Source of the DNA: Escherichia phage vB_Eco_ZCEC02
Reading direction: 5' to 3' (one strand)
Sequence record: PV833354.1
DNA: 39,488 nt
The position numbers and the translations under genes were made by a program. The notes under the pieces are model-generated. The model ran no database searches. It worked only from the letters and a program-made list of their open reading frames with translations, and was not told the origin of the DNA. Position 1 is the stretch's first letter; each line of letters begins with the position of its first letter. Positions 36,828 through 36,922 of this stretch are shown here, piece by piece.

Positions 36828-36922
36828 CTGAATGAATAACTATAGGCGAAAACTGAATTAATAAGCAGTTAGTAACCTATAGTTACTACCAGCCTAACCT
36901 ACTGTTTTATAAGGAGTTTTGA

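Follow-up and report, generated by a model that had tools for sequence, protein, structure and literature searches.

The closest described systems for the element reported here are hairpins at gene boundaries of T7-family phages, namely the RNase III processing sites of T7 (R0.3 to R18.5) and the class I terminator Tphi, together with the 3' protective stem-loops of the repetitive extragenic palindromic (REP) and RNase III-processed types. An inverted repeat in the DNA, the 'hairpin end', is said to have been placed by Chung, Nardone and Hinkle in 1990 at ~190 bp left of the terminal repeat of T7. Here we describe a stem-loop in Escherichia phage vB_Eco_ZCEC02 (PV833354.1), whose sequence of 39,488 nt, hereafter the window, is a circularly permuted whole genome of the K1F-like type (Kayfunavirus, T7 family). 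The stem-loop lies between gene 19, which encodes the terminase large subunit, and the phiOR promoter. It is a conserved structured RNA element, in which pairs are maintained by compensatory substitution above controls. With moderate confidence, we take it to be a stem-loop of the 3' untranslated region (UTR) that would protect or process the ends of late mRNA and so act as a determinant of stability or processing. The hairpin was previously unannotated, but it is an ordinary kind of element.

Like the T7 RNase III hairpins, the window element is an intergenic sense-strand hairpin at a gene boundary, with a lower stem, an internal loop and an upper stem, and its lower stem of 10-11 bp would be compatible with the E. 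coli RNase III minimum of ~11 bp. Unlike them, it lacks the sequence GACUCAAGGUC...GGCCUUUAUGAU, and its proportions are reversed: the lower stem is long and AU-rich and the upper one short, whereas the T7 sites have a short lower stem and a GC-rich upper stem of 9-11 bp. Dunn and Studier (1983) reportedly described no RNase III site after gene 19 in T7, and the T7 RefSeq record lists none there. The element resembles the 3' protective stem-loops in following the stop codon that ends a long transcription unit, in keeping structure over sequence and in having no U-run, but its stem is AU-rich and moderately stable, and the sequence of its apical loop is conserved. With Tphi it shares a place downstream of a late gene, and distant relatives have Tphi-like U-run hairpins at exactly this position; the window element has neither the GC-rich stem nor the U-run. 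Like the T7 'hairpin end', it is an inverted repeat and belongs to the right-end region of a T7-family phage, but it lies about 640-690 nt from the terminal repeat, not ~190, and its wobble pattern points to RNA.

The stem-loop downstream of gene 19

The core of the element is a perfect 10-bp inverted repeat, TAACTATAGG at 36837-36846 and CCTATAGTTA at 36876-36885, with 29 nt between the arms. Its 5' arm begins 10 nt past the gene 19 stop codon, and from the end of the 3' arm it is 36 nt to promoter position -17 of phiOR and 54 nt to +1. A first-pass annotation had recorded a palindrome of 9 bp here, some 40 bp upstream of phiOR; the distance fits our measurement, and the perfect repeat is one base longer. 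The 9-mer AACTATAGG occurs at 36838-36846 on the + strand, its reverse complement at 36876-36884, and there is no third copy in the window. These two matches compare with 0.22 expected, and 3 of 100 shuffles get to two. Perfect repeats with arms of 10 bp or more and a loop no longer than 40 nt number three in the window, versus 1.16 ± 1.1 in 200 dinucleotide shuffles. The bare inverted repeat is therefore only weakly beyond chance; selection is evident from the compensation seen among relatives, not from the repeat itself.

The arms form the lower stem of a three-tier stem-loop of ~67 nt. RNA folding of 36825-36915 gives -18.6 kcal/mol (z = -2.1), DNA parameters predict the same fold at -10 kcal/mol (z = -2.5), and the commonest variant among relatives folds at about -24 kcal/mol as RNA. 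The parts of the stem-loop are as follows, with the evidence for each in parentheses.

36827-36893, + strand: whole stem-loop, in the gene 19 3' UTR from the last base of the stop codon (folds, covariance model, pair counts)
36827-36830, + strand: outer helix, 5' side, GCUG, pairs with 36890-36893 (fold)
36837-36846, + strand: lower stem, 5' arm, UAACUAUAGG (inverted repeat; alignment columns 19-28)
36847-36850, + strand: internal loop, 5' side, CGAA (alignments)
36851-36855, + strand: upper stem, 5' side, AACUG, pairs with 36866-36870 (fold)
36856-36865, + strand: apical loop, AAUUAAUAAG, 10 nt (alignments)
36866-36870, + strand: upper stem, 3' side, CAGUU (fold, pair counts)
36871-36875, + strand: internal loop, 3' side, AGUAA (fold, alignment)
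36876-36885, + strand: lower stem, 3' arm, CCUAUAGUUA (inverted repeat, pair counts)
36890-36893, + strand: outer helix, 3' side, CAGC (fold, pair counts)

Across relatives the lower stem has 10-11 bp, the internal loop 3-4 by 4-5 nt, the upper stem 5-6 bp and the apical loop 8-10 nt. The lower stem is AU-rich, with 2-3 G-C pairs, a 29-nt interior and the tail CUACCAGCC. Position 36847 is U in most relatives and makes an 11th pair with 36875, where the window has a C-A mismatch; at alignment pair 29-57 the relatives show U-A 22 times, U-G 4 times and C-A 8 times. The apical loop of most relatives is 8 nt long, AUGAAUAC, and closed by C-G. Compared with these, the upper stem of the window is degraded, with an A-G mismatch and a changed loop.

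Pairing across the Kayfunavirus-type phages

The 901 bases around the palindrome match 228 phage records, nearly all of them Kayfunavirus, with identities of up to 98.7%. For the comparison we took the end of gene 19 together with the flank downstream of it from 80 IMG/VR contigs, 24 metagenome contigs and 20 GenBank phages, and counted pairs in 34 distinct sequences; because these sequences are related, pair cells are not independent events and the counts overstate independence. In all Kayfunavirus-type genomes without an insertion the hairpin starts ~10 nt after the gene 19 stop, with a stem sequence that varies by lineage, and the relatives align without gaps except for one bulge. Standard pairs occupy 92.1% of the pair cells, versus 18.6-43.0% when the 3' partners are slid by 1-3 columns. 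Changes on both sides were seen in 9 of 21 pairs (shuffle mean 5.3), and the covariation score was 0.236, versus 0.162 ± 0.008 in shuffles. Neither this score nor the observed paired fraction was reached in any of 500 shuffles. A first alignment and one fitted to a covariance model agree with this picture. Thus, the pairing of the stem-loop is kept across the Kayfunavirus-type phages by compensatory substitutions. The first-pass annotation had left open whether the palindrome was a structured element or a degenerate duplicated promoter; the first of these is upheld by the compensatory changes, and the second, as described below, is contradicted by the promoter matrix, the relatives and alignment.

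By tier, 93% of cells are paired in the lower stem (5' arm in columns 19-28), where 6 of 11 pairs changed on both sides, 91% in the upper stem (columns 33-38 with 47-52) and 90% in the outer helix (columns 9-12 with 73-76), which is variable and missing from the type B lineage. Stepwise series with extant intermediates were found at pair 26-60 (A-U, G-U, G-C), pair 36-49 (U-A, U-G, C-G) and pair 38-47 (C-G, A-G, A-U). The upper-stem pair 34-51 is G-U, A-U or G-C; in the outer helix, pair 11-74 goes from U-A to C-G and pair 9-76 is G-U, A-U or G-C. We estimate that about three compensations at single pairs, one replacement of five pairs and two replacements of a complete stem underlie these counts. 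The stem TAACTATAGG/CCTATAGTTA is common to the window and most other relatives; type A' has ACTATGGG/CCCATAGT, type B has ATACCTACGCA/TGCGTTAGGTAT, another lineage has GTACCG/CGGTAC with the register shifted, and EcpYZU01 (locus L023) has a 15-bp stem, GGTTAGTCAGAGATAC/GTATCTCGACTAACC. In types B and C and in EcpYZU01 a wholly different stem stands at the same position of the alignment.

Sequence conservation is highest in the apical hairpin CUGCAUGAAUACGCAG. Its columns 37, 39, 40, 45 and 48 are invariant, even in lineages with an entirely different lower stem, and columns 35, 36, 43, 44 and 47 are conserved to at least 90%.

A covariance model built from 22 relatives has a single match in the window (36819-36900, + strand, 99.9 bits) and one match per genome, in Kayfunavirus-type loci only; at E-values up to 1 it detected no homologue of the element in either T7 or the more distant relatives. 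The hairpins that T7 has between gene 19 and phiOR are small and unrelated. Many of the more distant relatives do have a hairpin ~10-20 nt from the gene 19 stop, in some cases with a U-run and resembling a classical terminator. A scan of metagenomes for further variants yielded eight usable Kayfunavirus loci and no new stem types.

The substitutions also bear on the nature and strand of the molecule. G-U wobbles fill 80 cells at 10 pair positions and are nearly fixed at pairs 9-76 and 34-51, whereas A-C pairs, the would-be wobbles of the other strand, fill 15 cells at 6 positions. This asymmetry would favour a sense-strand RNA over an antisense one. It lends support without deciding the matter, as the two strands have similar mean fold energies (-21.9 versus -21.6 kcal/mol), so that energy did not discriminate between them. 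The G-U excess also counts against a symmetrical cruciform, in which each wobble is a mismatch in one arm.

Six relatives (L012, L013, L014, L090, L091 and L112) carry a gene for an HNH endonuclease between gene 19 and phiOR. The insertions are of at least two kinds and remove all or most of the hairpin; in five of the six the HNH gene extends to within 13 nt of the promoter, and in CR44b the replaced stretch extends up to the 3' arm. The covariance model matches none of these six relatives. CR44b and phiYIO1-1, both among these insertion relatives, are viable isolates.

A proposed role at the ends of late transcripts

All genes and promoters of the window are on the + strand, and scans of 36000-38400 and 19500-39488 found no terminator-like site close to the end of gene 19 (the few consensus matches in 19500-39488 lie further upstream and do not exceed chance, at 10 versus 14.4 expected from shuffles). 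Late transcripts should therefore contain the hairpin. In the mechanism that we propose, late transcripts from upstream phage promoters would read through gene 19 into the hairpin, because no terminator lies between those promoters and the hairpin. T7 polymerase has only two natural terminators (bioRxiv 10.64898/2026.02.12.705533), so transcripts through gene 19 would end heterogeneously downstream. After the last long late gene, the read-through RNA would fold into the ~67-nt three-tier hairpin, which would block 3'-to-5' exonucleases coming from the heterogeneous downstream ends of the gene 19 and late mRNA. A role at 3' ends is suggested by the combination of a sense-strand stem-loop after the last long late gene, a structure that is kept, its wider occurrence, its dispensability and the lack of terminator features.

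In a variant of this mechanism, host RNase III would cut at the internal loop, with a protective hairpin remaining at the 3' end, as occurs at other processing sites of the T7 family. E. coli RNase III requires a helix of at least ~11 bp from the cleavage site, and an internal loop or mismatch can direct the enzyme to a single-strand cut; such cuts at internal loops leave stabilising 3' hairpins (PMC3867540). A lower stem of 10-11 bp, an internal loop and an upper stem of 5-6 bp are compatible with these rules, which are permissive. RNase III processing is thus a plausible variant, though it would be less likely than a passive barrier because the family consensus is absent.

Several points weigh against a protective or processing role. 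The function is read from anatomy and position alone, and the literature yielded no transcript map, Kayfunavirus transcript-end data or described hairpin after gene 19. The hairpin is AU-rich and only moderately stable, and it lacks the consensus of the T7-type RNase III sites of the window. The strand bias is suggestive only, with ~10 distinct sites versus 6, and the relatedness of the sequences means that the cell counts overstate independent events. Since isolates that lost the hairpin to insertions are viable, it appears dispensable: it would be helpful at most, not essential, and any benefit would be modest. Finally, the apical hairpin CUGCAUGAAUACGCAG is kept in sequence, which a simple exonuclease barrier leaves unexplained; this is the one feature that the best explanation does not account for.

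Alternatives and neighbouring elements

The alternatives depend in part on the layout of the right end of the window, whose other features are listed here.

35064-36827, + strand: gene 19, terminase large subunit (list of open reading frames; relatives annotate 'terminase large subunit' under the match)
36825-36827: gene 19 stop codon, TAG
36922-36944, + strand: phiOR promoter, ACTTAACTATCACTATAGGGAAG, with +1 at 36939 (34.7 bits with the promoter matrix; separate from the hairpin)
36932-36940: phiOR core, CACTATAGG
37125-37283: gene 19.5
37522: left end of the T7-type genome, TCTCACAG
38291: Ocr-like early gene

The record of ASO2B marks a promoter at the site equivalent to phiOR, and that of EcoDS1 names it phiOR. 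A junction-type motif, CTCTATCTGTATAACC, lies at about 37695-37710, ~180 nt past the left end, where the end of the terminal repeat is expected; its form is ATCTGTA in the window and ATCTGTT in T7.

The element could instead act as DNA, as a hairpin or cruciform beside phiOR that takes part in replication initiation at the right-hand secondary origin or in concatemer processing and packaging. Compensatory change would preserve a DNA hairpin too, and the same fold is predicted with DNA parameters. The surroundings are rich in A and T (GC 0.34-0.40) and border on phiOR, whose name in T7 refers to a secondary origin. We regard this as unlikely. The wobbles (G-T in DNA, A-C on the opposite strand) are frequent and nearly fixed at two pairs, which would leave a cruciform arm mismatched, and the HNH-insertion lineages lost the element without replacement. 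The first-pass annotation had placed the palindrome near the packaging region, a link that its position does not support. The element lies upstream of phiOR, 637-685 nt left of TCTCACAG at 37522, and an invariant-arm repeat at 37317-37359 occupies the site where a T7-type 'hairpin end' is expected; we therefore rejected the element as a 'hairpin end'.

That second repeat is a perfect 12-bp inverted repeat after gene 19.5 (CTAAGGTCAGT/ACTGACCTTAG, 37317-37328 and 37348-37359), 163-205 nt left of the left end. Its arms are invariant in relatives, and its loop is variable, with a small hairpin. It is a candidate for the packaging 'hairpin end' of T7 type, to which it is a better fit than the gene 19 hairpin.

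A pause or termination signal for the phage RNA polymerase, insulating from late read-through the phiOR-to-junction transcription on which packaging of the T7 type depends, also appears improbable, even though the hairpin is located between the last late gene and phiOR and distant relatives (L044-L053) have genuine hairpin and U-run terminators at this place. As a class I (Tphi-type, intrinsic) terminator the element was rejected: it has no GC-rich stem, no U-run directly follows the stem, and terminator scans are empty here, yet pick up the stem of the window's own Tphi (20169-20186). As regards class II, the hairpin is followed in types A and D by CUACUGUUUUA (36899-36909), which has CTGTT in common with the class II motif. 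The seven bases of that motif, which we take to be ATCTGTT, are found in the window inside genes only (3285, 9452 and 32478). The motif is described as strictly conserved and preceded by A, C or T (bioRxiv 10.64898/2026.02.12.705533); the window reads TACTGTT (36900-36906) downstream of the hairpin, which is not that motif, and types A', B and C have other sequence in place of the nearby spacer motif TACTGTTTT. A junction-like signal of the phage itself, ATCTGT, lies elsewhere, at 37700.

The terminator Tphi of the window follows the capsid gene at 20154-20190 and consists of a 17-bp GC-rich stem with a UUCG-type loop, then UUUUUG (-31.6 kcal/mol). No other local structure in a scan of the genome is as stable. 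Three hairpins with the T7 RNase III consensus, at about 4040-4080, 11165-11210 and 34515-34568, correspond to the T7 sites after the polymerase gene, before the DNA polymerase gene and between genes 18 and 18.5. The consensus itself is found at 4066, 11196 and 34549 and not near 36837-36885, and a T7-consensus RNase III site was accordingly rejected for the gene 19 hairpin. A search of Rfam 15 with 36000-38400, both strands, gave no match at E-values up to 1.

The conserved apical sequence suggests a further alternative, an operator RNA in which CUGCAUGAAUACGCAG, presented by the lower stem, is bound by a protein of the phage or the host that controls terminase expression or ties late mRNA to another process. 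Such an operator seems distinctly doubtful. Lineages with a completely replaced lower stem keep the sequence of the apical stem-loop, as an operator would predict, but it has no known partner, the upper stem of the window variant is degraded (the A-G mismatch and changed loop), EcpYZU01 is without the apical motif, the element is dispensable, and apical conservation may reflect a short divergence time. More specifically, putative recognition of the apical CUGCAUGAAUACGCAG by a phage protein, for example terminase, or by the polymerase-lysozyme complex might couple the end of late transcription, or the terminase mRNA, to the onset of phiOR-dependent DNA packaging; we know of no such coupling RNA element described for the T7 family, and we consider this regulatory RNA quite improbable.

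It is very unlikely that the arms are phiOR-like relics, a degenerate or duplicated promoter that lost CACTAT by slippage and perhaps still binds polymerase weakly. The first-pass annotation was literally correct that the arms look like a promoter core without CACTAT (TTAACTAT[CACTAT]AGG versus aTAACTATAGG): TAACTATAGG equals TTAACTAT[CACTAT]AGG minus one of two ACTAT repeats, AACTATAGG is found at these two places only, and T7, too, has a core-like GCACTATAGACC between gene 19 and phiOR. However, with a matrix built from the nine promoters of the window (23-bp consensus, -17 to +6, whose specificity region lies upstream of -5), the arms reach only -3.1 bits on the + strand and -14.6 bits on the - strand, versus 33.4-37.7 for the nine real promoters and 24.7-29.2 for weak candidates, and they match the consensus at positions -6 to +2 only. 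One arm points leftward, opposite to all transcription in the genome. Types B (L018, L019, L109 and L114) and A' share the same phiOR promoter and have stems unlike a promoter (ATACCTACGCA/TGCGTTAGGTAT and ACTATGGG/CCCATAGT), and stems such as GTACCG/CGGTAC and GGTTAGTCAGAGATAC/GTATCTCGACTAACC at the aligned position show no promoter likeness either. Tandem duplication of the phiOR region was also rejected, as the hairpin and phiOR regions are not significantly similar outside the core (local alignment score 24, reached by 102 of 1000 shuffles). The arms resemble a promoter only incidentally, through the self-complementary hexamer CTATAG, and do so in a single lineage.

A chance palindrome without function is barely credible: although about one perfect 10-bp short-loop inverted repeat is expected in a genome of this size and some lineages dispense with the element, 34 distinct sequences keep the pairing by compensatory and wobble substitutions, and it persists through complete stem replacements.

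The nine phage promoters of the window have CTWAACTATCACTATAGG in common. Two weaker promoter-like sites, at 6649-6671 (CACTGTAGG, 29.2 bits) and 9177-9199 (CACCTTAGG, 24.7 bits), have one or two core changes and score far below the nine strong promoters and far above background. In L016, L023 and L024 the promoter of the phiOR region differs (ACCCTCACTATAGGAAAG), while the gene 19 product (gp19) is ~85-90% identical and a hairpin lies at the same site. A different promoter with gp19 and hairpin kept indicates switching of polymerase and promoter specificity inside the Kayfunavirus-type group.

Another perfect 12-bp inverted repeat (AAGGGCCTATAG/CTATAGGCCCTT, 23376-23387 and 23414-23425) encloses the phi13 promoter (CACTATAGG at 23403), so that only read-through RNA holds both arms. 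Of 16 distinct relatives, some with a different promoter, 15 have its core GGCCTATAG/CTATAGGCC unchanged, and one has a single G-U-compatible change. In the CR8-like L129 an upstream arm pairs instead with the promoter itself, as in T7 near the R13 site. The phi13 repeat resembles the gene 19 hairpin in its perfect stem (12 versus 10 bp), its self-complementary CUAUAG, its loop (26 versus 29 nt) with a small inner hairpin, and its place at a late gene boundary next to a phage promoter; unlike the gene 19 hairpin, it has invariant arms in which no covariation was seen, and it encloses rather than precedes the promoter. In T7 itself (L082, 231-330 and 350-400), small hairpins containing TGCAT accompany the core-like GCACTATAGACC between gene 19 and phiOR, and downstream of phiOR there is ACTGAATGAATAC, which resembles the CTGAATGAATAA that flanks the window hairpin (36828, repeated at 36853).

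Among the GenBank records inspected, none marks the hairpin. Small coding sequences (CDS) for a 'hypothetical protein' cover the hairpin and promoter in EPr2, KKP_3263, phi1_146013 and PM129; the CDS over the hairpin in relatives are the following.

L110, 578-694
L195, 50-158
L196, 35-158
L197, 50-158

These calls look spurious, because the RNA structure is conserved and the reading frame is not. In the window the only small open reading frame across the hairpin, ATG AAT AAC TAT AGG CGA AAA CTG AAT TAA (9 codons), was rejected as an explanation of the element, since type B does not keep it.

Few phage genomes are annotated as well as those of the T7 family, which are also widely engineered, and K1F-like phages in particular are used in therapy and synthetic biology. 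The hairpin leaves the general picture of how K1F-like and T7-family phages work unchanged. Recognising a conserved 3' UTR structure corrects the small-CDS annotations, and it brings a caution for engineers: the gap between gene 19 and phiOR, a natural insertion site for homing endonucleases, holds a selected RNA element. The hairpin also makes it possible to study control of mRNA ends at the terminase gene in a simple and testable case.

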